Position numbers and translations under genes: made by a program. The notes under the pieces were generated by a model that was not told the DNA's origin, did no database searches, and saw nothing but the letters and a program-made list of their open reading frames with translations. A stretch of 64,000 bases of DNA from Treponema sp. (GTDB lineage: Bacteria; Spirochaetota; Spirochaetia; Treponematales; Treponemataceae), in the NCBI GenBank assembly GCA_024687165.1, contig JAILEY010000076.1:82-64081 (forward strand), written 5' to 3'. Below, piece by piece: positions 31,913-50,678 of the stretch (its first letter is position 1; each line of letters begins with the position of its first letter).

Positions 31913-31973
31913 AGTGAACATTATAGCAGATTATGATAAAGTTGAATATAAGAGAGGCAGCTTCAAAACTTTT

Positions 31974-32351
31974 ATGAAATATTCTCTGCGCATTTTTGAT
32001 TTTATACTCGTATCTCTTTTTGCAGTGGCAGCAATTTTCTGCTTTACAAGATTTTTCTCATCATCAAATAAAAAAAATAAAATTCTGATTGTAAAAACAC
32101 CTCACGAAAAATACGCCTACAGTCTGAATAAAAATGTTGAATTCACCACGAAAGGCTCAATCGGGAAAACTAAAATTAAAATAGAAAACGGCAAGGCATT
32201 CGTCACGGAATCCTGCTGCGATAATAAAAACTGCATCAACATGGGAAAACTCTCACGGGTAAATGATTATGCGGCATGTCTACCAAACGGAATTATTCTT
32301 TACATCGAAGGTGAAGATGAAAAAGAAAAAATTGATGCAATTGTAAATTAA
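31974..32351 (+). CDS. NusG domain II-containing protein
   Basis: N-terminal TM; G.IG.T.I.IENGKA.V.ES.C.NK.C...G......ACLPNG. Start moved to 31974. Confidence 0.85.
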   Translation: MKYSLRIFDFILVSLFAVAAIFCFTRFFSSSNKKNKILIVKTPHEKYAYSLNKNVEFTTKGSIGKTKIKIENGKAFVTESCCDNKNCINMGKLSRVNDYAACLPNGIILYIEGEDEKEKIDAIVN

Positions 32352-32443: not shown

Positions 32444-33451
32444 TCAATACTTTTCAAGAGAGTTAAGTTCGCCGATAGAACTCCAGGAGCCGTCGCTCAT
32501 TACAAAGACGACTGAAAAATCTACGCCGAGTTCTTTTTTTATTCTTTCAAAATTTTCTTCAGTTTTTTTTCTGCCCATGACAAAAAGAGATGTTGAAAGT
32601 GCGTCTGCATATGTACTTGATTTACAGATTACTGTAACTGAATCAACTCCATTTTCAGAAGGATAGCCTGTTTTATAATCAAGAATGTGGTGATATTTTT
32701 TTCCGTCCTGTACAAAATATCTTTCATAATTTCCGCTTGTTACAACGGATGCTTCAGTCGTTTTAAAATATAAATACGGATCTTCCGCATCAGGATTTTT
32801 TGGATTTTTAATTCCAAGCGACCACTTTTCACCATTTTCTTTTTCCCCGACGACATAAACATTTCCGCCAAGATTTACGACCGCTTTTTTCACATTATGA
32901 TTTTTAAGAATTCTGACACATTCATCTGCAGCATAACCTTTTACAATTGCACCAAGATTTATTTTTGCACCAGATTTTTTTATTTTGATTTTTTTTGAAT
33001 CACAATCAAAGAGAATTTCACTTGAATCAATTAAAGATTTTTCTTTTTGAATCTGTTCAGCAGAAGGAACCTGAGGATCAATTTTGCCGACTCCCCACAA
33101 GTCTATAAGATTCCCTATTGAAGGCATAAAAGCTTTGTTTGTAATTTCACTGAATTTAAAAGATTCATCAAGAAGATTAAATACCTCTGGAGAAACTTCA
33201 ATTTCTTCGCCGGATTTTAAATTGTTGATTTTTGAAATTTCTGAATCAGGATTTGTGATACTAAACTTAAAATCAATCTCACGAAGTCTTTTAAAAATCT
33301 CGTCATAAAGGTCTTTTGTTCCATCGTCAAATGCATTAACAGAACACACAGTATCCATCAGCTGCATTGTCCGCGGATTTTCAAAATTCTTTTTTTTACT
33401 GCAGGATAAAAACAAAGAAACAGTAATCATCAATATAAAAATCTTTTTCAT
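32444..33451 (-). CDS. apbE: FAD:protein FMN transferase lipoprotein (ApbE/Ftp)
   Basis: Lipobox FLSC; MDT, NLGAIVKGYAAD, NLGGN, TSGNYERY, HHILD..TGYP, ADALST. Confidence 0.93.
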   Translation of the reverse strand: MKKIFILMITVSLFLSCSKKKNFENPRTMQLMDTVCSVNAFDDGTKDLYDEIFKRLREIDFKFSITNPDSEISKINNLKSGEEIEVSPEVFNLLDESFKFSEITNKAFMPSIGNLIDLWGVGKIDPQVPSAEQIQKEKSLIDSSEILFDCDSKKIKIKKSGAKINLGAIVKGYAADECVRILKNHNVKKAVVNLGGNVYVVGEKENGEKWSLGIKNPKNPDAEDPYLYFKTTEASVVTSGNYERYFVQDGKKYHHILDYKTGYPSENGVDSVTVICKSSTYADALSTSLFVMGRKKTEENFERIKKELGVDFSVVFVMSDGSWSSIGELNSLEKY

Positions 33452-35658
33452 AAATCTTCCACAATCAAACTATTTTTCTGATACTTCGGCAAAAACTTTT
33501 TTATTCCGCCGGTTTCAAAACTTACGGTAATCACATACTCACCATCTTCTGAGTAGCGTCCATTGATTATCTGTCCGTGTCCATAATCATCGTGGTAAAC
33601 ACCCGCACCCAGATGATATTTTTCTTCAAGCGGATCCTTCTGTCTTTTTTCAGCGGTAAAATTCTCAGGTTTCTGACCAAGAATGCGCACATTATCTTTT
33701 CCAAGTTCATTAAGAAAAAGGCTCGGCATCATCGGATTTGTTCTGCCATAAAGACGTCTCATTGCACACGATGTAAAATAAAGCTCATCTTTTGCACGCG
33801 TAATTCCAACATAAAAAAGACGGCGTTCTTCTTCAATTTCTTCTGCAGATTTTTCTGGACGTGGGAACAGACCGCTTTCCATTCCGGTAATGATTACACG
33901 CTTAAACTCAAGACCCTTTGTATTGTGCAGAGTAATCAGGGTAACTTTGTCAGTATCAGGATCTTCTTCTTCCTGAGATGTCTTATCAAGATTTATATGA
34001 TCAATAAAATCAACAAGTCCCTGCAGCGTACACGGATAAAGCAGTGCAGAGTTTACAAGTTCTTCAAGGTTGCTGATTTTCTGAGTTCCGTCTGAATCAT
34101 CCTGCTCTTTATGATATTCTTCAAGACCGCTTTCTTTAATTACAGTTTCAACAAATGACGAAAGCTTTTTTACGGAATTACGGATTACTGTTTCATCTTC
34201 AGGAAGAGATGCTTCCTGCGCAAGAGATTTTGCTTCTGATGTTTCCGGCACATTTGGGAGCATTGCTACAAATTTTTCTACGAGATTTTTAAAATTATCA
34301 AATCCCTCTTTTGCTTTTTTTGAAAGCTTAACATTTGATGCACCGGACAAAATCGAATCACCAAAGCTTGCGTCGATTATTTTTTCCTGAGTTGTATTTC
34401 CAATTCCGCGCACAGGTTTATTTACAATTCTGCGAAATGAAATTTCATCCTTCTGATTTAATATAAAACTCAACCAGCAGACAATATCTTTTACTTCTTC
34501 ACGCTCATAAAATTTTAAAGTTCCTACAACTGAATAAGGAATTTTTTCATGAATAAATTCTGTTTCAAAACCAAGAGACTGCGCATTTGTTCTGTATAAA
34601 ATTGCCCAGTCGCTGTAAGGAACGCCTTTTTCACGAGACTGCTCAATTATACTTTTGCAGAATTCTGTTTCGTCATCCTGAGTCGGTAAAAATACAAGTG
34701 TCGGCTTTTTCCCTTTTCCACGTGCTGAAATCAAACTTTTTCCAAGACGTCCCTGATTATTCGAAACAACACTTTCTGCGCAATTTAAAATTTCCTCGCA
34801 GGAGCGGTAATTTGTTTCAAGACGCACGATTTTTGTGTCAGGAAATTCTTTTTCAAAATTCAAAATATTCTGAACTTCTGCACCACGGAATTTATAAATA
34901 CTCTGATCATCATCACCAACAACGCAGACATAAGTGCCGCTATTTTCCTCAGCACCAGAAAGAGCCTTTAACAATTTAAACTGAGCGACATTTGAATCCT
35001 GATACTCATCAACCATAATCACTTTAAATCTGTTCTGGATGCTTTTTCTGACCGCAGCATTTTCTTTTAAAATCAGATAAGGCAGAAGAATTAAATCACC
35101 AAAATCAACATTTCCTGTCGCACGAAGACGCTCTTCATATTTTGAATAATATTCTCCAAAAGACGGATCATCTTCAATCGTATAAAGCGCATCACTATCA
35201 GGAAGAAGGCAATAATCCTTTGCAAGAGAAATTTTATGCGCATAATGTTTTGCATCTTTTTTTGTAAGATGAGGAACTGCTTTCGTCAGAAGAGAAATCA
35301 TGTCATCGTCATCATAAACTGTAAAATTCGGCGAGACAGGAAAATCACTTTCTTCAGCATAACTTCTAAGAAACCACGAACCAAAAGAATGAAAAGTTCT
35401 GATCTGAGAATATAAAGAACGTGGCTCAAGATAAACTGCACGCTCTTTCATTTCATTTGCAGCTTTTTTTGTAAATGTTACGGCAAGAATCTGAGAAGGA
35501 CTATATCCAAGCTCACTAATAAGATATGCAATTTTTGTCGTAATTACTCGGGTCTTTCCAGAGCCTGCACCTGCAAGAATTAACAGAGGAGAGCCTTGAT
35601 GAACAACAGCTTCTTTCTGATCTGGATTTAAAACTGAAAGATATTCCTGAGAAGTCAT
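33448..35658 (-). CDS. UvrD/PcrA ATP-dependent DNA helicase
   Basis: AGAGSGKT, TFT.KAA, VDEYQD, VGDDDQSIY, NYRS, KGLEF, EERRLFYV.ITRA. Confidence 0.95.
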   Translation of the reverse strand: MTSQEYLSVLNPDQKEAVVHQGSPLLILAGAGSGKTRVITTKIAYLISELGYSPSQILAVTFTKKAANEMKERAVYLEPRSLYSQIRTFHSFGSWFLRSYAEESDFPVSPNFTVYDDDDMISLLTKAVPHLTKKDAKHYAHKISLAKDYCLLPDSDALYTIEDDPSFGEYYSKYEERLRATGNVDFGDLILLPYLILKENAAVRKSIQNRFKVIMVDEYQDSNVAQFKLLKALSGAEENSGTYVCVVGDDDQSIYKFRGAEVQNILNFEKEFPDTKIVRLETNYRSCEEILNCAESVVSNNQGRLGKSLISARGKGKKPTLVFLPTQDDETEFCKSIIEQSREKGVPYSDWAILYRTNAQSLGFETEFIHEKIPYSVVGTLKFYEREEVKDIVCWLSFILNQKDEISFRRIVNKPVRGIGNTTQEKIIDASFGDSILSGASNVKLSKKAKEGFDNFKNLVEKFVAMLPNVPETSEAKSLAQEASLPEDETVIRNSVKKLSSFVETVIKESGLEEYHKEQDDSDGTQKISNLEELVNSALLYPCTLQGLVDFIDHINLDKTSQEEEDPDTDKVTLITLHNTKGLEFKRVIITGMESGLFPRPEKSAEEIEEERRLFYVGITRAKDELYFTSCAMRRLYGRTNPMMPSLFLNELGKDNVRILGQKPENFTAEKRQKDPLEEKYHLGAGVYHDDYGHGQIINGRYSEDGEYVITVSFETGGIKKFLPKYQKNSLIVEDL

Positions 35659-40108: not shown

Positions 40109-41683
40109 ATGACTGAAATTCAAATTGATGAACTTAAAAAAGACGGCGTCAGATTTTTTGAAGAAGGAATCGATTATCCTGCGCAGAAAGCTGATTATGA
40201 AGAAAATGGTTGTGATGATGAGGTTCTGCTTGCTGCAAGAAAAGCTTTTGGAATATCTTATCTTTATCCGTGGCAAAGAATAGTGATTGAAAATATTCTT
40301 TCGGCACAACAAGAACTTCCGGAAGAAGAACTCAAGAATCTTGAAGAAAACAACACGGCCTTTTACAACGGAAGGCAGATAGTTCTTTTACCGACAGGAG
40401 CAGGAAAATCACTTTGTTTCCTTACACCGGCGCTTATTCTTAACGGACCGACAATGGTTCTCTACCCGCTTCTTGCTTTGATGTCAGACCAGAAAAGGCG
40501 AATGGATGAAGGAGGAATGAAAAGCGTTGTATTTAAGGGCGGACAGACTCATGAAGAAAGAGAAGAAAATTTCCGTCTGATAAAAGAAGGTGCAAAAATC
40601 ATTCTTGCGAACCCTGAAATTCTCCAGAGTGAAGAACTTGTACAGCGTCTTTCAGAATGCAACATTGCCCACATTGCAATTGACGAAGCTCACTGCACAA
40701 GCGAATGGGGTGATTCATTTCGTCCTGCATACCTCAATCTTGGAAATGTAATCAAAACAATTAACCCGAAAGCAGTAACTGCCTTTACCGCAACAGCAAG
40801 TCCTGAAGTTCTTTCCCGAGTATCTGAAATTCTTTTTGGAGGAAATGTTCATATTGTACGCAGCGACAGCGACAGACCGAATATTCACTACGAAGTGATA
40901 AATGCCTATGCAAAAAAAAGAGCCGCTTTCATGCTTGCTTTAAGTCGTCCCAAACCACTGATTATTTTCTGCGGAACAAGAGCAAAAAGTGAAGATATGG
41001 CACGAGAACTTGCTTCATATCTTGGAACAGATAAAGTTAAATTTTATCACGCAGGATTAAGCCGTGAAGAAAAAACAAAAGTTGAAAAATGGTTCTACAA
41101 TAAAACCGACGGAATACTTGCTGCAACCTGCGCTTACGGAATGGGAGTTGATAAAAAAGATATTCACACAGTCATTCATCTAGAGCCAAGTGAAACTGCA
41201 GAAGCATACATTCAGGAAGCAGGACGAGGGGGAAGAGACGGAAGTATAGCAACTGCAATTCTTTTATGGAGCAGCGAAGATTCAGAAAAAGCCTCTGTAT
41301 TTGAAAAAGGAAGCCGCAAGCGGGTACTTAAAACATTTGCAGAAAGCACTACATGCAGACGGCAGATTCTTCTTGATGCACTTGGAGGAGAACAGGCAGC
41401 CTGTGATGGATGCGATATCTGTAAAAGAAAACGCCCCGCAGACTTTGCACATGACGCAAAAATCATGCTGGATTTTGCAAAAAAGAACAAAAATAAATTC
41501 AAGAAAAATCAGTTTTTTTCTGAAATAGAAAATGAATTCAACAAAAGAAGCATAAAAAAAATCGGAATGAACATCTGGGAACATTCCGACATAAAGGAAA
41601 TTTTCCTGCAGCTTACAAAACAAAAAATGCTTACTTTAAGAAAATTTCCATTCAAGGGATTAATTAGTCCTGGCCAAAATTAA
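40109..41683 (+). CDS. recQ: RecQ-family helicase (no HRDC domain seen)
   Basis: PTGAGKSLC, DEAHC.SEWG.SFRP, TATA, YHAG, QEAGRGGRDG, CRR...C..CD.C. Confidence 0.9.
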   Translation: MTEIQIDELKKDGVRFFEEGIDYPAQKADYEENGCDDEVLLAARKAFGISYLYPWQRIVIENILSAQQELPEEELKNLEENNTAFYNGRQIVLLPTGAGKSLCFLTPALILNGPTMVLYPLLALMSDQKRRMDEGGMKSVVFKGGQTHEEREENFRLIKEGAKIILANPEILQSEELVQRLSECNIAHIAIDEAHCTSEWGDSFRPAYLNLGNVIKTINPKAVTAFTATASPEVLSRVSEILFGGNVHIVRSDSDRPNIHYEVINAYAKKRAAFMLALSRPKPLIIFCGTRAKSEDMARELASYLGTDKVKFYHAGLSREEKTKVEKWFYNKTDGILAATCAYGMGVDKKDIHTVIHLEPSETAEAYIQEAGRGGRDGSIATAILLWSSEDSEKASVFEKGSRKRVLKTFAESTTCRRQILLDALGGEQAACDGCDICKRKRPADFAHDAKIMLDFAKKNKNKFKKNQFFSEIENEFNKRSIKKIGMNIWEHSDIKEIFLQLTKQKMLTLRKFPFKGLISPGQN

Positions 41684-44522
41684 GTTTTTCCGCATCATCA
41701 GGACCTGTTACAGCATACCAGTTTCCTGTATCGAACCAGTACTTATTGAAAACCCGGAGAATATCTTCTGACGTACATTTTCTCAGACTTTCAAGATTTT
41801 TTTCATCATGATGCAGATCGTTATAGCGCAGAAGATTGTAAGCAAGATTAAAACCGACTGAAGAACTTGTCTGCTGAGACTGATATGTGGAATTGATAAA
41901 TGAATTTTTATATCCCTCAATTTTATCTTTTAAATCCGCAAAAATATATGTTCCATCCTCATTAACGCCATCAACAAGCATTCCCTGCTTCATATAATTT
42001 CTTGCTTCATCAAGTGCAGTTTTAAAATTTTCAAAATCAGAAACCTTAAAAAGATATTCAAATCCTACAGGCGCTTCTGAAGAACCGACAAAAGAAGACG
42101 GTGTATAGCATATTCCGTTTTTTTCGCGGACAACATTAAACATTACAGTGCTGTAAATATCCGCCGCAAGACAAGATGGAATAAAATCTTCTGATGAACC
42201 TGATGGAGATTTAAACACACGCGCAACGTATGCTGTACCTGCTGCAGACGGAAGGACTTCAATGCAAGGTTCAGCCGCAGATAATTCAATCTGTCCTACA
42301 ACAAGTTCTTTTTTATTTTTAGAAGAACCTCTTTTGATTTTACCAAATTGAGCATTCAGCTTTTCAACAATTTCCTGTTCATTCACATCACCTGCTACAA
42401 CAATAAACATCAAATCAGAAGCAAGAATATTCTTATGATATTTTTTCATTGCACTGACTGTAATATTTTTCAAAGAATCATCTGTTACACCTACGCCAAC
42501 ACTGTAAACATGACCTTCATAAATTTTATCAGAAACTTTTTTCTGAAGCAGATTATCAGCCTTAGTTTTTTCTGCATGAAGAGACTCTTTATAACTGTTA
42601 ATCATATTGTCATAAACAACCTGTTCAAAAGCCGGATTAATAATTCCATCTGCAAAAACAGGAAGAATTTTATCTAAATCTTTATCCATCACAGTCAAAC
42701 GCATGATGCTGCCGTTAACTTTAGAAACAGAACTAATCGAAGCTGATGTGTCAAAAAAAAGTTTTTTTCTATAATCGTAGCTGTATTTTTTTGAACAGTT
42801 AGACATCATATTAAAAAGCGATTTTTCAAGGCCGCTTGTTTCAAGTGTAAGATTTTTAATTCCGGATTTAAATGCAACATTCATCGAAAGGATTCTGCTG
42901 GAAGTTTTATTTATATAAACAGGAATTCCATTTTTAAGTTTAAACTCTGAAATCGATTTCTGTTTTCTCTTTGAGCCATTTTCGGATTTATTTTTTGACG
43001 GGCTGAAAATATTTTTATCTTCCGTGTATGAAATTTTATAATCAATTTTTTTCGGAGCAAATTCCGGAAGCTTCCACCAGCATGATTTTTCTTCTGTAAC
43101 AACTTCAAATCCAAGTTTTTCAAACTGAGCTTTCTGCTGATCATAAACTTCAGGGTTTACAATTACAGCAACAAGAGGCTGATTGCGGAAATATTTTTCA
43201 ACACAATACTCAAGGTCACTCTTTTTAACCTCAGAAATTTTATCGATGTAGGAATAATAATATTCAGCAGAAGAATTTTCCCAGCATCTGGAAATGTTAC
43301 CCAAAAGTCCGGTTGCAGTTTCTCCGTTTCGGATTCTAGAATCAAGCATAGAATCAACACAACGAGTCATTCTTTCTTTTGTAAAATTCTTTTCATCTTT
43401 AAGAATTGCATCAATGATTTCTTTTTCAATTACATCAGCAAATTTTACAGTACGTTCTGCAATATCTTTTTCAGGCTCAAGCATCACTGCATCAAATTCA
43501 AAACAGCCGTTTGCCCTTACAGTTGCATACCCTGCAGAAACATAACTTTCTGCAGGAATCTTAAATTCTTTTTTTTCTATTATATTTTTTTTGAAAGTTC
43601 CATCAGGTTCAGCACAAAGTTCGCATAAGTAATCCATCGGATATGTATCTTCAATTTCATGGTCTGTATCAGGTCCGCGATACTCAACAATAACTTCTGC
43701 CATATTCGGAGAAATCTGAGGATGAGGCATTACGCACAATTTTCTTTTTTCAAAAACTTTATGCTTTTGTTTAGCGCCTTTTTCTGGAGCTGAATTTCCG
43801 TTATTACTCCAGCTGCCGAAAATTTTATTTACAAGCTTATAAGTATCTTCCGGATCTACATCTCCACCAACAAACAATGCTGCATTACACGGAATATAAA
43901 ACTTAGTCTGAATATCACGAAGTTGTTCTACAGTTGCATTTCTTACAACATCAAAAGATCCACTCGGGTCAACTCTGTACGGAGCTTCAGGGAAAAGATT
44001 AAGTCTCAAGTATCCGCCTAAAATTCTTCCAGGCTCAGATTTTTCACCTTCTATTTCTGCAAGAACAACTTTTTTCTCTTTTTCAAACTCATTCTTATCC
44101 ATCAATGGAGAACGAATTGCAGCATTCCAGAAAGCAAGCCCTTCCTCAAGTCTGTCTGACGGGACTGTAAAAAAATAATTCACCCGATCAACGCCGGTTG
44201 TTCCGTTCCATGAAGAAACCCCAAGTTCAGAGATTGCATTTTGAACAGATGCTGCATCTTTATACAATGCATTTCCCTTGAACATCATGTGCTCATACAA
44301 ATGGAAAAGCCCCGCATTTTCTGGAGTCTGAGTTACAGCACCAGCCTTTACCGCAATTTCAATATATGCAAGCGGAACAGTGTGATTTTCTGCGACGAAA
44401 AGTTCAAGCCCGTTATCAAGCTTATATTCATAAAGTCCTTCAACGGGAGTTTCTCTGGCAGATACAGAAAACGTTAAAACGCATATTGCCAGAACCAGTG
44501 AAAAGAAATTTCTTTTTTTCAT
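41664..44522 (-). CDS. Exported M16 zinc peptidase (PqqL-like, duplicated halves)
   Basis: Signal peptide; HLYEHMMFKG HxxEH motif; second LKNGI repeat. Confidence 0.9.
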   Translation of the reverse strand: MKKRNFFSLVLAICVLTFSVSARETPVEGLYEYKLDNGLELFVAENHTVPLAYIEIAVKAGAVTQTPENAGLFHLYEHMMFKGNALYKDAASVQNAISELGVSSWNGTTGVDRVNYFFTVPSDRLEEGLAFWNAAIRSPLMDKNEFEKEKKVVLAEIEGEKSEPGRILGGYLRLNLFPEAPYRVDPSGSFDVVRNATVEQLRDIQTKFYIPCNAALFVGGDVDPEDTYKLVNKIFGSWSNNGNSAPEKGAKQKHKVFEKRKLCVMPHPQISPNMAEVIVEYRGPDTDHEIEDTYPMDYLCELCAEPDGTFKKNIIEKKEFKIPAESYVSAGYATVRANGCFEFDAVMLEPEKDIAERTVKFADVIEKEIIDAILKDEKNFTKERMTRCVDSMLDSRIRNGETATGLLGNISRCWENSSAEYYYSYIDKISEVKKSDLEYCVEKYFRNQPLVAVIVNPEVYDQQKAQFEKLGFEVVTEEKSCWWKLPEFAPKKIDYKISYTEDKNIFSPSKNKSENGSKRKQKSISEFKLKNGIPVYINKTSSRILSMNVAFKSGIKNLTLETSGLEKSLFNMMSNCSKKYSYDYRKKLFFDTSASISSVSKVNGSIMRLTVMDKDLDKILPVFADGIINPAFEQVVYDNMINSYKESLHAEKTKADNLLQKKVSDKIYEGHVYSVGVGVTDDSLKNITVSAMKKYHKNILASDLMFIVVAGDVNEQEIVEKLNAQFGKIKRGSSKNKKELVVGQIELSAAEPCIEVLPSAAGTAYVARVFKSPSGSSEDFIPSCLAADIYSTVMFNVVREKNGICYTPSSFVGSSEAPVGFEYLFKVSDFENFKTALDEARNYMKQGMLVDGVNEDGTYIFADLKDKIEGYKNSFINSTYQSQQTSSSVGFNLAYNLLRYNDLHHDEKNLESLRKCTSEDILRVFNKYWFDTGNWYAVTGPDDAEKLNFGQD

Positions 44523-44584: not shown

Positions 44585-45205
44585 TTATTTAACTGAAAAA
44601 TATATCCTGTCAATGATGTTTTTTGCCGTTGTAATTTTATCAGAAAATTCCGTATGAATCATGCCGTCACTTCCGTCAACAGAACCAGTTCCTGCAAACG
44701 TAAGTGTAACTTCCTGTTCAGATCCATCAGGAGTAATCAGTCCTGTATAGATTACAGAAGGCTGTCCGTTAACTCCAGAATTTTCTTTGGTCCAGGTTTC
44801 ATTGTAGTCAAAACTCTGATTAAATTCAGCCTTAATAACATAAGTTTTTCCAGGTTCAAGTTCAGAATCGATTTTTATTACGGTTCCTTTTTTTGGAGTT
44901 GCACCGGTTGAAGCATCAAGTTCATTTTTCTTAAGCTTCTTTGCCGGATCCTGACCTTTTGCAGCATACCATACCGGAAGCGATTCAGGACGCCCTTCAT
45001 CAGGTCCAAAAGTCCACCCCTTTGAACTTGCACTTTTTGTAACATAAAGTGTTTTTACAAAAGTTCCGTCTGTATTTTCAACCCACACTGCAAACTGAGG
45101 CTTTCTCTCTCCCCAGATTTTTCCAGGTCCTATAAAGACGGTTAAAGCAGTTGCAGCAGCAGCCACAAAACAACAGATAATTATATTCATCGTAATTTTT
45201 TTCAT
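44585..45205 (-). CDS. DUF2271-like exported protein with flavinylation motif
   Basis: Signal peptide; PQFAVWVE..DG.FVKTLYVT; RPESLPVW; DASTGATP. Confidence 0.75.
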   Translation of the reverse strand: MKKITMNIIICCFVAAAATALTVFIGPGKIWGERKPQFAVWVENTDGTFVKTLYVTKSASSKGWTFGPDEGRPESLPVWYAAKGQDPAKKLKKNELDASTGATPKKGTVIKIDSELEPGKTYVIKAEFNQSFDYNETWTKENSGVNGQPSVIYTGLITPDGSEQEVTLTFAGTGSVDGSDGMIHTEFSDKITTAKNIIDRIYFSVK

Positions 45206-45235
45206 ACTACACTCCCTTTATACGACATTCTTAAT

Positions 45236-46204
45236 TTAAAACTTATGAGTAAAACTGCACCCGATTCTTCTAAAATACCATTCACGGCCTTTTTTTGAAA
45301 GAAGCGGCTCATCCTCAAGATCATCATGATTTTCTGCAAAGCTTCTGCGGCTTCCAAATTCAACAAGAACTACAATCGAATTTTTTTCATCAAAATCATA
45401 ATTTGCAAGCCCCGCAATATTTATGCTCATAAAATCACCATCAAACTTTGAATAATATGCAGAATCAGAAAAATAATCACTCAAAGCACCAGTAAACTGA
45501 AGCTTAACTCCCACAAGAGAAAGTTTTGACGGCATCTGATAACCGAGAATATAATTTGATTCATAACCTGCACCTTTTGAAAGTCCGCCATCAGAATGAA
45601 ATTTAAAAAGCTCATCATCATCCTGAGCATTCAAAAGCCCCTGATAATTAATTTCCCAGCTTGCAACTGCTATAATGTGATGCCAGTCTCCCGGCCAGAT
45701 TGCAGCAGCATCAAACATAAGCGTTGAACAAAACCATGCAAGATATCTGTAAGTTTTAAAAGGAGTCTGCTGAACATATTCTCCTTCAGTTGGATCATAA
45801 CAGGCAAGACTCTTTATCCCTAAGAATTTCCATGCAGCAGAAATATTTGCACCTGCGCTGAAATTTAAAAATGCAACCGGTGTAAAAGAAATCTTTGCTT
45901 TTGGAGTTACAGAAACAGGAGTTAAAGCAAGTGCTCCTTCAAGAATAAGCTTATTATCAGCAAAAAGGAAATTATCGCTGAAAGGAACCGGAATAATGCA
46001 GTCAGCCTTTAAAGTTTCCTGAAGCTCAGCTCCATCGTACACTCCTGTTATTGGTGCAAAATGTCTATTTCCTGATTTGTAATCTGCTTTCGGATAATAT
46101 GCAAAATCAGTTACCGACGAAAATTCAAAACTAATATTTTTGTCTGATTGAGCATAAACAAAAGCTGAAAAAGCAAATAATGCAGCAAGTAATCTTTTTT
46201 TCAT
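45236..46204 (-). CDS. Putative outer-membrane beta-barrel protein
   Basis: Signal peptide MKKRLLAALFAFSAFVYA; alternating aromatic beta-strand pattern; terminal Phe (CSFTHKF). Confidence 0.65.
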   Translation of the reverse strand: MKKRLLAALFAFSAFVYAQSDKNISFEFSSVTDFAYYPKADYKSGNRHFAPITGVYDGAELQETLKADCIIPVPFSDNFLFADNKLILEGALALTPVSVTPKAKISFTPVAFLNFSAGANISAAWKFLGIKSLACYDPTEGEYVQQTPFKTYRYLAWFCSTLMFDAAAIWPGDWHHIIAVASWEINYQGLLNAQDDDELFKFHSDGGLSKGAGYESNYILGYQMPSKLSLVGVKLQFTGALSDYFSDSAYYSKFDGDFMSINIAGLANYDFDEKNSIVVLVEFGSRRSFAENHDDLEDEPLLSKKGREWYFRRIGCSFTHKF

Positions 46205-46216
46205 TTTTTTACCTCT

Positions 46217-46804
46217 CTACGTTCTGAAAAAAATATTCATCATTTTTTCAATAAAACAATCCGTAAAATCTTTTCCGCGGTTCCAGAATTCAGGATCATT
46301 TCTTTTGGACAGGGAAATCTGAATACATCCCCACAGCCCCGCAATCATTATTTCAGTATCAAGCTTTGGATTTTTTGAAACTGCAATTTTTTTTCTTACA
46401 CATTCTTCAAAAAGCTCCAGACCGAATTTGTTGCAGACATAAAATGCAGGCAGTTCTGTATCCCCGATATTTTCAGAGAACTTGCTTAAAACGGCAACTG
46501 CAACTGTCGGATTTTCAAAACACCAGTCCCTGAAGGATTCAAGCGCAAAGCGTACTTTTTCCTTACAGTCATCAGTTTTTGAAACATCAGCTTCCATTCT
46601 GTCCCTTAAGCCGGCAAGACAAGTAATGGAAATCTTTTTGAACAATTCGTTCTTGTCCTTAAAATAATGATAAATTGAAGTTGCGCTGACATTGCACATT
46701 TTTGCAACATCACGCATCCCGATTTCAACAGGCTCCTTTGTTTCAAGAAGTTTTAACGTTGCATCGAGAATTTCTTTTTCCAGTGTTAAGTTTTTTGGTC
46801 TCAT
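46217..46804 (-). CDS. TetR/AcrR family regulator
   Basis: IGMRDVAKMCNVSATSIYHYFKDK HTH. Confidence 0.9.
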   Translation of the reverse strand: MRPKNLTLEKEILDATLKLLETKEPVEIGMRDVAKMCNVSATSIYHYFKDKNELFKKISITCLAGLRDRMEADVSKTDDCKEKVRFALESFRDWCFENPTVAVAVLSKFSENIGDTELPAFYVCNKFGLELFEECVRKKIAVSKNPKLDTEIMIAGLWGCIQISLSKRNDPEFWNRGKDFTDCFIEKMMNIFFRT

Positions 46805-46829
46805 AACACAGTTAATTTAACATTGTTAA
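46804..46829. promoter_or_regulatory. Tandem TAAC-N3-GTTA operator over the TetR promoter
   Basis: TAACACAGTTA 46804-46814 and TTAACATTGTTAA 46817-46829, within a minus-strand TTGACT-17-TAAATT promoter. Confidence 0.6.
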
Positions 46830-46920
46830 TTTTTAAAGTCAACAACTTTATGATTTTTTTTCTTTTACATAAAAACTTTTTTGATTGAATAATTAAATCT
46901 GTTCGATTATTATAGACGAT

Positions 46921-48749: not shown

Positions 48750-50678
48750 TTAATTTTCGTCATCTAATTCTGAAAAGTTTAGAGAAGAAATTGTAAAATT
48801 ATCTCTTGCTTCCTCTTTTATCTTCTTGCCTTCTTCAGTTTCTTGTTTTGGAAAATATTCCGCTGTATATTCTTCAATTGACTGAACAAGAACTTCATCC
48901 GCAGTTTTTTCCTTCTTCAATGAAATTGCGGCTGAAAGAAGTCCACCCTTGCGTTTTGGTGCAGTTTCTGATTCTGGAGATGCATTTTCAATTTCTTTTA
49001 CTTCTTCAGTTTCTGCAGGAACAGCTGATTCTACGGGTTCTGCAGCAGCAACTTCTTCAAGTTCTTCAACAGACTCTACAGATTCAGCATCCTGTATTTC
49101 GTCAAGCTCTTCTACATCTTCAACAGATTCCGCTTCTTCTACAGATTCAGCTTCCTCAACAGGCTCAACTTCTTCAACATCTTCGAGTTCCTCAACATCT
49201 TCAACAGGCTGAACTTCTTCTACCTCTTCAAGCTCCTGTAATTCTTCAAGTTCTTCAACTTCCTCTACAGGCTCTGCATTCTCTGCTTCTTCAAGTTCCT
49301 GAACTTCCTCAAGTTCTTCAACATCAACAAGTTCTTCTATATCTTCAGCTTCTTCAACATCCTCAACCTGAACCGGCACAACAGGAGCAACCACAGGCTG
49401 ATTTTTTACAGGAGCCGTCTGAACCTGAACAGGAGTGAGTTCTTCCTTCGGGTCAAGAGTATTTTCATTTCTCATGCGGCGAAGTGCTGCAACATTTCCC
49501 CCCATTGCAGACATAATGTCAGTCCAGCTGGCTTCAAGCATTTCATCAACTTCCTTGCTGTACTTTCTGCCTTTTCTGCCGAGACTGCGCTTTATTTCAC
49601 TATTAACATCAACTTTTCTCAAAGAAATTTCTCGGGAAAGAGCCTTCCAGTTCGAACTGTCTTTTCTGTCAATATATTCCTTCAAAAGTTCATACTGGAA
49701 TTTTTTAATCCTTCGTCTGATCAAAACCATTTCATCATGGCGCATATTGAAAACAAGGAAAACAACCAGGAATAAAGTTATGTAAAAACAAATCAGAATT
49801 GCAAATTTTTCAAAATCAGAAAATTCAAATTCGTCCTGACTGCAGATCCATCCGATTCTTATTCCGGAACGTTCATTTGCAACCACAAAAAGATTTTCTT
49901 CTTTTCTTGAAGATTCCGTAATTTTTTCAATATTTACAAATGATTTCTTCCAGCACTCCTGAATTTTTGAAACAAGACTTGAACGGATTGCATAAGGAAT
50001 TTCAAAAACAAATCCACGCGGACTAATTACAGTTCCTCTTGAATTCAGTGCAACAATATCGCGGGTAACAAGATAACGAGTAAAATCATCGCCGGAAACA
50101 TAAAACAACATCGTTCCACGGTATGCGGTATATAAATCATAAAAAGGATAACTGAATACAAGAAGATTTTTGGAGCTGTCAAAATAAATCTTTGTGTTGC
50201 TTTCACCCTCTTTAGATTCTACAAGAGAAAAAGGGATTCTGTTTCCGTCAAGATAATTTGTGTACGAAACAAGATCTTTTGTTTCTTCAAGAATATCTTC
50301 TTTGAAAGTACTGAAGTGAATGTGAATGCCGTCATTTTCTACAAGACGGACTCCCTCAAGCCCCGGCTCACTCTGAAAAAGACTGCCTTCAAGATTTGCA
50401 CGATTTTTTAAATCTTCCTGAGAAGGCTCACGTTCAATGTATGAAGTACTGCATTTTTCCTTCATAAAACTGCGGAAACGAACATCAAGTCCGTTTGAAT
50501 ATTCACTGTATGCAGACTGAATTTTTTCAAGTCGTGAATTTATATTTCCGATTACTCTCGGCTCATAAAACTGAACCTCAAGATATTTAAATCCACCTGC
50601 AAAAGAAAAAAACATGCAGCCAATAAAAATGAGAATCGATATCAATAAACTTAATGCTACTTTTGGCGCCGTAGACAC
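48750..50678 (-). CDS. Two-TM protein with periplasmic domain and acidic repetitive cytoplasmic tail
   Basis: GTG start with SD; TM1 at N-terminus, TM2 about residue 300; E/D/V-rich tail. Confidence 0.8.
   Translation of the reverse strand: MSTAPKVALSLLISILIFIGCMFFSFAGGFKYLEVQFYEPRVIGNINSRLEKIQSAYSEYSNGLDVRFRSFMKEKCSTSYIEREPSQEDLKNRANLEGSLFQSEPGLEGVRLVENDGIHIHFSTFKEDILEETKDLVSYTNYLDGNRIPFSLVESKEGESNTKIYFDSSKNLLVFSYPFYDLYTAYRGTMLFYVSGDDFTRYLVTRDIVALNSRGTVISPRGFVFEIPYAIRSSLVSKIQECWKKSFVNIEKITESSRKEENLFVVANERSGIRIGWICSQDEFEFSDFEKFAILICFYITLFLVVFLVFNMRHDEMVLIRRRIKKFQYELLKEYIDRKDSSNWKALSREISLRKVDVNSEIKRSLGRKGRKYSKEVDEMLEASWTDIMSAMGGNVAALRRMRNENTLDPKEELTPVQVQTAPVKNQPVVAPVVPVQVEDVEEAEDIEELVDVEELEEVQELEEAENAEPVEEVEELEELQELEEVEEVQPVEDVEELEDVEEVEPVEEAESVEEAESVEDVEELDEIQDAESVESVEELEEVAAAEPVESAVPAETEEVKEIENASPESETAPKRKGGLLSAAISLKKEKTADEVLVQSIEEYTAEYFPKQETEEGKKIKEEARDNFTISSLNFSELDDEN
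49029..49367 (-). repeat. Intragenic degenerate tandem repeats (EELEEV / EEAESV / EPVEEV units)
   Basis: About 110 aa of Glu/Val/Asp repeats; near-identical adjacent 18-bp units around 49128-49163. Confidence 0.85.

Follow-up and report, generated by a model that had tools for sequence, protein, structure and literature searches.

We describe an operon of three closely spaced genes, tetR, barrel and DUF2271 in this order (44585-46804, minus strand), in a 64,000-nucleotide stretch of a Treponema genome (contig JAILEY010000076.1 of assembly GCA_024687165.1, positions 82 to 64,081; hereafter, the window). The genes encode a TetR-family repressor, a predicted outer-membrane beta-barrel and an exported long-form DUF2271 protein that is expected to carry covalent flavin mononucleotide (FMN). 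The operator predicted to control them is found at a second place in the genome, upstream of a gene for a cytoplasmic reductase of the iron-sulfur flavoprotein (Isf) type. The regulon predicted in this genome is made of these two transcription units, and apbE, the gene for the flavin adenine dinucleotide (FAD):protein FMN transferase, is not among them. We see about an even chance that the two units form a small-molecule-inducible redox regulon, which would respond to a redox-active or electrophilic compound.

The host is a ruminant-gut Treponema, and the sequence of the locus was found in sheep and bovine gut DNA metagenome runs. A first-pass annotation of this DNA had proposed a TetR-controlled operon with a tandem operator before tetR, a barrel and a DUF2271 protein with an ApbE-type motif, and had joined them in an import-and-reduce module with links to the apbE, NusG_II and M16 peptidase genes of the window. 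The operon, its operator and the nature of its three products were all borne out, while the module and its proposed links fared less well, as described below. The intergenic gaps are 12 nucleotides (nt) from the tetR stop to the barrel start and 30 nt from the barrel to DUF2271, and a Shine-Dalgarno sequence was seen before the gene that follows each gap (GAGAGG is the ribosome-binding site of the barrel gene).

The tandem operator and the predicted regulon

The repressor (46217..46804, minus strand; 195 amino acids) matches PF00440 at 43.2 bits. Its similarity to the named TetR equivalogs is weak and mostly confined to the N-terminal region, and only distant relatives were found by sequence in the PDB. 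The alignment of the orthologues revealed that Cys62 is invariant (19/19) and Cys37 nearly so, and the former may be the sensor residue. A consensus scan placed a sigma-70-like promoter upstream of the gene (46814..46842, minus strand), with TTGACT, a spacer of 17 nt, TAAATT and a TG before the -10 element. This region reads TTGACT-ttaaaaa-TTAACAATGTTAA-a-TTAACTGTGTTAT-G, and the predicted TetR operator (46803..46829, minus strand), TTAACAATGTTAA-A-TTAACTGTGTTAT, consists of two 13-bp palindromes whose centres are 14 bp apart. It lies between the -35 element TTGACT and the tetR ATG, with site 1 within the promoter spacer and site 2 just past the -10 element, abutting the ATG. In this region (window 46802-46842), the ATG follows the -10 element by only about 9 nt and lacks a Shine-Dalgarno sequence, so that the tetR mRNA is probably leaderless or near-leaderless here. 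The closest relative (locus L001) has the same arrangement, and other genera have a GGAGG leader.

The operator was followed in 23 loci, i.e., 20 fetched DUF2271 loci, the window and two loci reached via barrel homologues, which were mapped by tblastn and operator search. Across Treponemataceae, its conserved form comprises the element TTAACAnTGTTAA twice, at a spacing of 14 bp, and overlaps the promoter. The tandem motif (core AACAnTGTT) was present upstream of tetR in 19 of the 23 loci, at the same position and in at least five genera. The presence of a TetR_N domain in the repressor and of a palindromic operator over its own promoter strongly supports the prediction that it binds the tandem operator and autoregulates its expression.

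We then considered the whole 2.38-Mb assembly, using first-order Markov simulations as background. The best tandem match genome-wide was the operator of the tetR operon itself (1 mismatch). The second best (3 mismatches; 0.05 sites of that quality expected) was found on contig C28 (C28:30427-30453), 40 to 66 nt upstream of the Isf-like gene (C28:29869-30387), where the promoter is identical to that of tetR (TTGACT/17/TAAATT). Since the same promoter and operator are carried on C28, the Isf-like gene is placed in the same predicted regulon. A strict pattern, AACANYGTTANNNNNWCNNNGTT, matched twice in this genome, once per genome in ten DUF2271-positive relatives, in each case beside the DUF2271 gene, whereas three DUF2271-negative genomes gave no match. 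Eight of the matches in relatives fall within the fetched loci, all of them at the operon promoter, and a reversed-pattern control almost never matched. A tandem operator that is both conserved and genome-specific supports the proposed TetR control of the operon. The operator scan of the genome returned no site near apbE. Elsewhere in the genome, TTAACAATGTTAA recurs exactly a single time (C12:8800-8812), as a half-site between the genes of a PNPOx-like FMN-binding protein (141 amino acids) and a 131-residue membrane protein; it was discarded as a regulon member, since a single exact half-site is too weak.

The C28 gene encodes the only homologue in this genome (47% identity) of the Isf-like reductase that sits in the operons of relatives. 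The protein (172 amino acids) matches PF03358 (63.3 bits) and PF02525 (62 bits) and carries a CX2CX2CX5C motif, which is kept in 7/7 Isf-like proteins. It thus combines, outside the window, an FMN_red/flavodoxin-like fold with the compact CX2CX2CX4-7C motif of Isf-type proteins, and the iron-sulfur cluster is predicted. The profile of these proteins matches the structures of NADPH:quinone oxidoreductase, SsuE and the azoreductase AzoR. On C28, the Isf-like gene and a Fur-family regulator gene point away from each other, and CobW-like and ZnuA-like genes come after the latter.

Products of the operon and their conservation

The DUF2271 protein (44585..45205, minus strand; 206 amino acids) matched PF10029 at 31.3 bits, above the gathering score of 27.3, over residues 34 to 109. 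Its 754 homologues are mostly from Treponema and annotated as DUF2271, and nearly all of them carry PF10029. Inspection of the sequences showed an N-terminal MKK, a hydrophobic stretch and an A-x-A site, a signal-peptide pattern common to the homologues, and the protein is therefore predicted to be extracytosolic. The AlphaFold2 model is a beta-sandwich (pLDDT, the model's confidence score, of 76.6) in which the loop around the flavinylation motif is of low confidence. No PDB entry was matched by sequence, nor by fold at E<=1e-3.

The predicted ApbE flavinylation site, DASTGAT, was located by codon arithmetic at residues 97 to 103 (44897..44917, minus strand), where the first-pass annotation had placed it, and the FMN-phosphoryl group would be expected at Thr103. 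None of 32 Treponema homologues departs from D97, A102, T103, P104 or K105, and relatives have G, S or A at position 101. When 1.84 billion representatives were searched with a profile, 1106 proteins reached E<=0.001, and 133 reached E<=1e-30. Among 149 sequences (the 148 best distant representatives plus the query), there was D at position 97 in 138, S or T at position 100 in 141, A at position 102 in 134, T or S at position 103 in 146 and P at position 104 in 121. Seven distant representatives (334 to 364 amino acids) have an N-terminal multi-helix membrane domain, and the five of them that were scanned gave weak, repeated matches to DUF4405, joined in three cases by matches to cytochrome b561. 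DUF4405 is a heme-binding membrane cytochrome associated with flavinylation (Huang et al. 2024, mSystems, PMC11334425), and these DUF4405- and cytochrome-b561-like fusions support a role of the long-form DUF2271 domain as an electron acceptor. A proteobacterial DUF2271 protein is flavinylated by ApbE at the motif, as revealed by coexpression and a Thr-to-Ala mutant (Meheust et al. 2021, eLife, PMC8238504). From family membership and the invariant motif, the Treponema protein is expected to carry covalent FMN at Thr103.

The second gene of the operon (45236..46204, minus strand; 322 amino acids) had been predicted to encode an outer-membrane barrel, and the structural analysis agreed. No Pfam or NCBIfam model matched at E<=1. 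The AlphaFold2 model, built from a 44-sequence alignment (mean pLDDT of 90.5; predicted template modelling score, pTM, of 0.83), shows 12 long antiparallel strands, and Foldseek returned 170 PDB matches at E<=1e-3, all of them outer-membrane barrels. The top matches were the COG4313 channel 4RL8, OmpG, porins, FadL and KdgM. The template modelling (TM) scores were at most 0.40 when normalized by the query and up to 0.56 when normalized by the target, and the former value places the protein outside every solved family. Neither sequence models nor close structural matches assigned it to COG4313, FadL, OmpG, KdgM or DUF3570. The signal peptide (MKKRLLAALFAFSAFVYA|QS), the closed antiparallel barrel of the model and the C-terminal aromatic residue (...THKF, ending in Phe) all suggest a barrel of about 12 strands in the outer membrane. 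In the model, the conserved motifs PGDWxH and GYQMP fall on turns whose predicted location is periplasmic, and the invariant residues P109, D165, H176, Y222 and P225 cluster at these turns (residues 109-112, 165-176 and 221-225), which is unusual for a plain diffusion channel. As a speculation from the model, these turns could suit the docking of a periplasmic partner.

Strong full-length matches to DUF2271 were found in 28 of 151 Treponemataceae genomes. In the 23 loci, TetR is immediately upstream of DUF2271 in 20, the barrel is part of the operon in 9 and an Isf-like Flavodoxin_2/FMN_red gene in 8. Seven gene orders were observed (TetR-barrel-DUF, TetR-Flav-barrel-DUF, TetR-DUF-Flav-barrel, TetR-DUF-barrel, TetR-Flav-DUF, TetR-DUF-Flav and TetR-DUF). 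The counts and the gene orders indicate that the core of the system is TetR plus DUF2271, with the barrel and the reductase as accessories. Where a genome has both a strong DUF2271 match and a barrel (19 genomes), the two genes are usually neighbors (13 genomes). Maximum-likelihood analysis placed the operon-linked barrels in two clades with long branches between them (100/100 support), so that the linkage needs at least two changes on the tree. This recurrent linkage argues for a functional connection. The synteny survey therefore retains part of the proposed module of porin and flavoprotein: the pairing recurs in two barrel clades, but the conserved unit is TetR plus DUF2271, in which the barrel is optional.

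The barrel family defined here was found mainly in Treponemataceae (103/151 genomes, about two-thirds). We rejected the idea that the barrel always accompanies DUF2271, since neither DUF2271 nor TetR was found within 1.5 kb of the barrel in the 30 top-scoring loci of other genera. Among these stand-alone loci (L004-L033), the barrel is followed by a KamA-like radical S-adenosylmethionine gene (CxxxCxxC) on the same strand in 17 of 29, and a small exported protein of 140 to 180 amino acids precedes it in seven. The most distant barrel homologue with complete-genome context, from Oceanispirochaeta crateris (CP036150.1; L003, 6001-8212), is encoded directly upstream of a split ChrA pair, a weak hint that the family could serve oxyanion or xenobiotic traffic. 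Two apparent Flavodoxin_2-barrel fusions from Logan assemblies (P0126 and P0129, of 531 and 536 amino acids), in which the Isf-like reductase is joined in frame to the barrel, were dismissed as read-through gene calls, since the barrel's own methionine and signal peptide lie inside. They most likely correspond to two abutting genes; P0129 represents 216 member sequences.

Proposed function and its alternatives

Under the redox-regulon reading, a small redox-active or electrophilic compound would release TetR from its operator. Induction would then produce the exported DUF2271 protein, to be loaded with covalent FMN at Thr103 by a single constitutive ApbE, and the outer-membrane channel of about 12 strands, through which the compound would cross the outer membrane. 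From the second promoter, with the same operator on C28, the cytoplasmic Isf-like NAD(P)H:FMN or quinone-type reductase would be made, and the compound would be reductively handled by this enzyme in the cytoplasm and by DUF2271-FMN in the periplasm. We favor a response to a redox compound because a cytoplasmic flavoreductase, a periplasmic flavoprotein and a channel would share one ligand-sensing repressor. A plant- or microbe-derived quinone of the ruminant gut could be such a compound, which is plausible given the origin of the organism, gut metagenomes of sheep and cattle.

NemR-NemA of Escherichia coli consists of a TetR-type sensor of electrophiles and quinones with a flavin reductase, and QsrR and YodB/MhqR-AzoR are functionally similar quinone regulons. 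By analogy, the system described here would share with them an autoregulating repressor, an NAD(P)H-dependent reductase of flavin or quinone/azo type and a conserved, possibly sensory cysteine, the relationship in sequence being visible only at the TetR fold. To our knowledge, systems of the NemR-NemA type include neither a periplasmic covalent flavoprotein nor an outer-membrane barrel.

Several observations weigh against the proposed redox response. Among the 11 DUF2271-positive genomes, PepSY_TM (PF03929) was found in none, DUF4198 (PF10670) in one and DUF4405 in two, this genome being in neither case one of them. With the three families absent here, no membrane electron conduit that would reduce the periplasmic flavin is evident in the cluster or in the genome, which is the main mechanistic gap. 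The match to PF10029 is partial (profile positions 17 to 77 of 136), and the glycine at position -2 of the motif is variable. The barrel family occurs mostly without DUF2271 and in other contexts, and hence is not dedicated to this system. The sequencing runs that hold the locus are DNA metagenomes only, and the idea of a quinone or electrophile draws on the analogy with TetR-reductase pairs such as NemR-NemA. A bolder version of the proposal, which we regard as a long shot, is an inducible envelope electron route that does without a membrane conduit. A diffusible quinone-like compound, both inducer and shuttle, would enter via the barrel, be reduced by the Isf-like enzyme in the cytoplasm and exchange electrons in the periplasm with flavinylated DUF2271 docked on the conserved periplasmic rim of the barrel, making a "porin-flavoprotein" counterpart of the porin-cytochrome complexes in a cytochrome-poor anaerobic spirochete.

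Three other explanations were considered, each of which we judge less likely than the redox regulon. The system could be a defense against oxidative stress, in which TetR senses the oxidant via Cys62 while the Isf-like and DUF2271 proteins serve as cytoplasmic and periplasmic reductases of O2 or peroxide. For archaeal Isf proteins, reduction of O2 and H2O2 has been reported, and the conservation of both the Isf-type cysteine motif and Cys62 (19/19 repressors) would fit such a role. We nevertheless find this unlikely: it is hard to see what an outer-membrane channel would do for O2 or H2O2, which diffuse freely, organic ligands are usual for TetR regulators, and the patchy spread of DUF2271 (strong matches in 28 of the 151 genomes) is odd for a general oxidant defense.

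A second explanation, to which we give a still lower probability, is reductive metal acquisition, with the periplasmic flavoprotein reducing Fe(III) or a chelate entering via the barrel. The published DUF2271 clusters are tied to iron reduction and uptake (PMC8238504), and the operator-bearing Isf-like gene adjoins the Fur-family gene and then CobW-like and ZnuA-like genes of metal homeostasis. Yet this Fur-family neighbor was seen only in this genome, the predicted control is by TetR with its own conserved operator instead of Fur, and none of the 23 loci contained genes for an iron transporter, a TonB receptor, PepSY-like proteins or DUF4198.

The least probable of the three is that DUF2271 is here not a flavoprotein but an exported beta-sandwich protein binding a glycan or a hydrophobic ligand, with the barrel as an unrelated neighbor: the weak match to CBM_4_9 (E=0.003), the position of apbE outside the cluster, the lack of an evident electron donor and the many barrels without DUF2271 would agree with it, but the motif D..[ST].A[TS]P is found in 32/32 close and about 90% or more of the 149 distant homologues, relatives are fused to cytochrome-like DUF4405 domains, and two distant clades, which differ in gene order, either gained or kept the linkage to the barrel.

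Comparison with known systems and neighboring genes

The pairing of a barrel with a carrier of an extracytosolic redox cofactor recalls the flavinylated outer-membrane protein DUF3570 and the porin-cytochrome complexes of the MtrAB type. This barrel, however, has neither the [ST]GA[ST] motif nor a Pfam match to DUF3570. The MtrB barrel is much larger and sheaths its partner, whereas a barrel of about 12 strands leaves no room inside for a 20-kDa protein, and any complex of the two proteins would be hypothetical here.

The published clusters of PepSY-like, DUF2271, DUF4198 and ApbE proteins (PMC8238504) resemble this system in having an exported DUF2271 protein, an ApbE-type motif in the same loop and an ApbE encoded in the genome. 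They differ from it in their composition, since the cluster described here is devoid of PepSY-like, DUF4198 and apbE genes, and no PepSY_TM was found in the 11 genomes. The Treponema protein is also longer (about 205 amino acids, compared with a domain of about 135), its Pfam match is confined to the first half of the model, its predicted control is by TetR with a defined operator, and its partners are a barrel and a cytoplasmic Isf-like reductase. Concerning the DUF4405 cytochromes (PMC11334425), distant long-form relatives of this protein are fused to DUF4405- and cytochrome-b561-like domains, whereas the Treponema DUF2271 is stand-alone and soluble and its genome has no DUF4405 match. We found no mention of DUF2271 together with Treponema in the literature searched. 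The two surveys of flavinylation (PMC8238504 and PMC11334425) do not mention Treponema, and that of 2021 does not mention TetR contexts either.

That DUF2271 is a substrate of ApbE was already known. What is new here is the long version of the protein, which stands alone, its predicted control by TetR through a defined operator, the lack of partners of the PepSY-like and DUF4198 types, the accessory barrel and Isf-like proteins, and the family of this outer-membrane barrel, which occurs mainly in Treponemataceae. Although flavinylation by ApbE is proven for DUF2271, its function is unexplained, and until now it was discussed in PepSY-like, iron-associated clusters. Here, it would be the invariant product of a ligand-gated regulon in anaerobic gut spirochetes that lack the usual partners. 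The TetR ligand and the inducing condition, once found, should reveal the physiological role of the flavoprotein. Flavinylated periplasmic proteins could thus be conditional factors in the response to stress or xenobiotics, and not only fixed parts of respiratory chains.

The neighboring genes do not seem to belong to this unit. The ApbE lipoprotein (32444..33451, minus strand; PF02424 at 276.8 bits; lipobox LFLSC) and the NusG_II protein (31914..32351, plus strand; PF07009 at 69.7 bits) are indeed present, about 11 kb away, and the lipoprotein is the single exported ApbE encoded in the genome. Their proximity was not upheld as a functional link. ApbE was found in 140 of the 151 genomes of the family, almost always in a single copy, and this genome has one match. 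Seven genes lie between apbE and DUF2271 here, compared with the five within which apbE is sought in a flavinylation cluster (Meheust 2021), and in the complete genomes of relatives the two are at least 100 kb apart (for example, 125 and 106 kb in G063 and G003, respectively). The resident clients of ApbE include RnfD, with DAVSHAT and DAVSQAT, RnfG, with DAITGST, and an FMN_bind protein, with DAVSGAT, all of them motifs comparable to that of DUF2271. The presence of RnfD and RnfG as ordinary clients explains a housekeeping ApbE, which serves Rnf here. The nearness of apbE is thus incidental, and ApbE acts in trans, outside the regulon. The start of apbE overlaps by 4 nt the stop of an upstream gene for a UvrD/PcrA-type helicase (33448-35658), suggesting that apbE is translationally coupled to this DNA-repair gene.

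The M16 peptidase gene (41664..44522, minus strand; Pfam M16 and M16_C), which had been considered a possible partner, starts 62 nt downstream of DUF2271. It was rejected as a part of the system, since it adjoins DUF2271 in this genome only and in none of the 22 related loci. No terminator was predicted in the 62-nt gap, so that the peptidase gene may be cotranscribed with the operon by read-through in this genome. On the other side of the operon, a membrane-anchored protein of 642 amino acids (window 48750-50678), which has no Pfam match, shows a long acidic tract and repeats rich in E, V and P (EEVEE..., VEELEE...).

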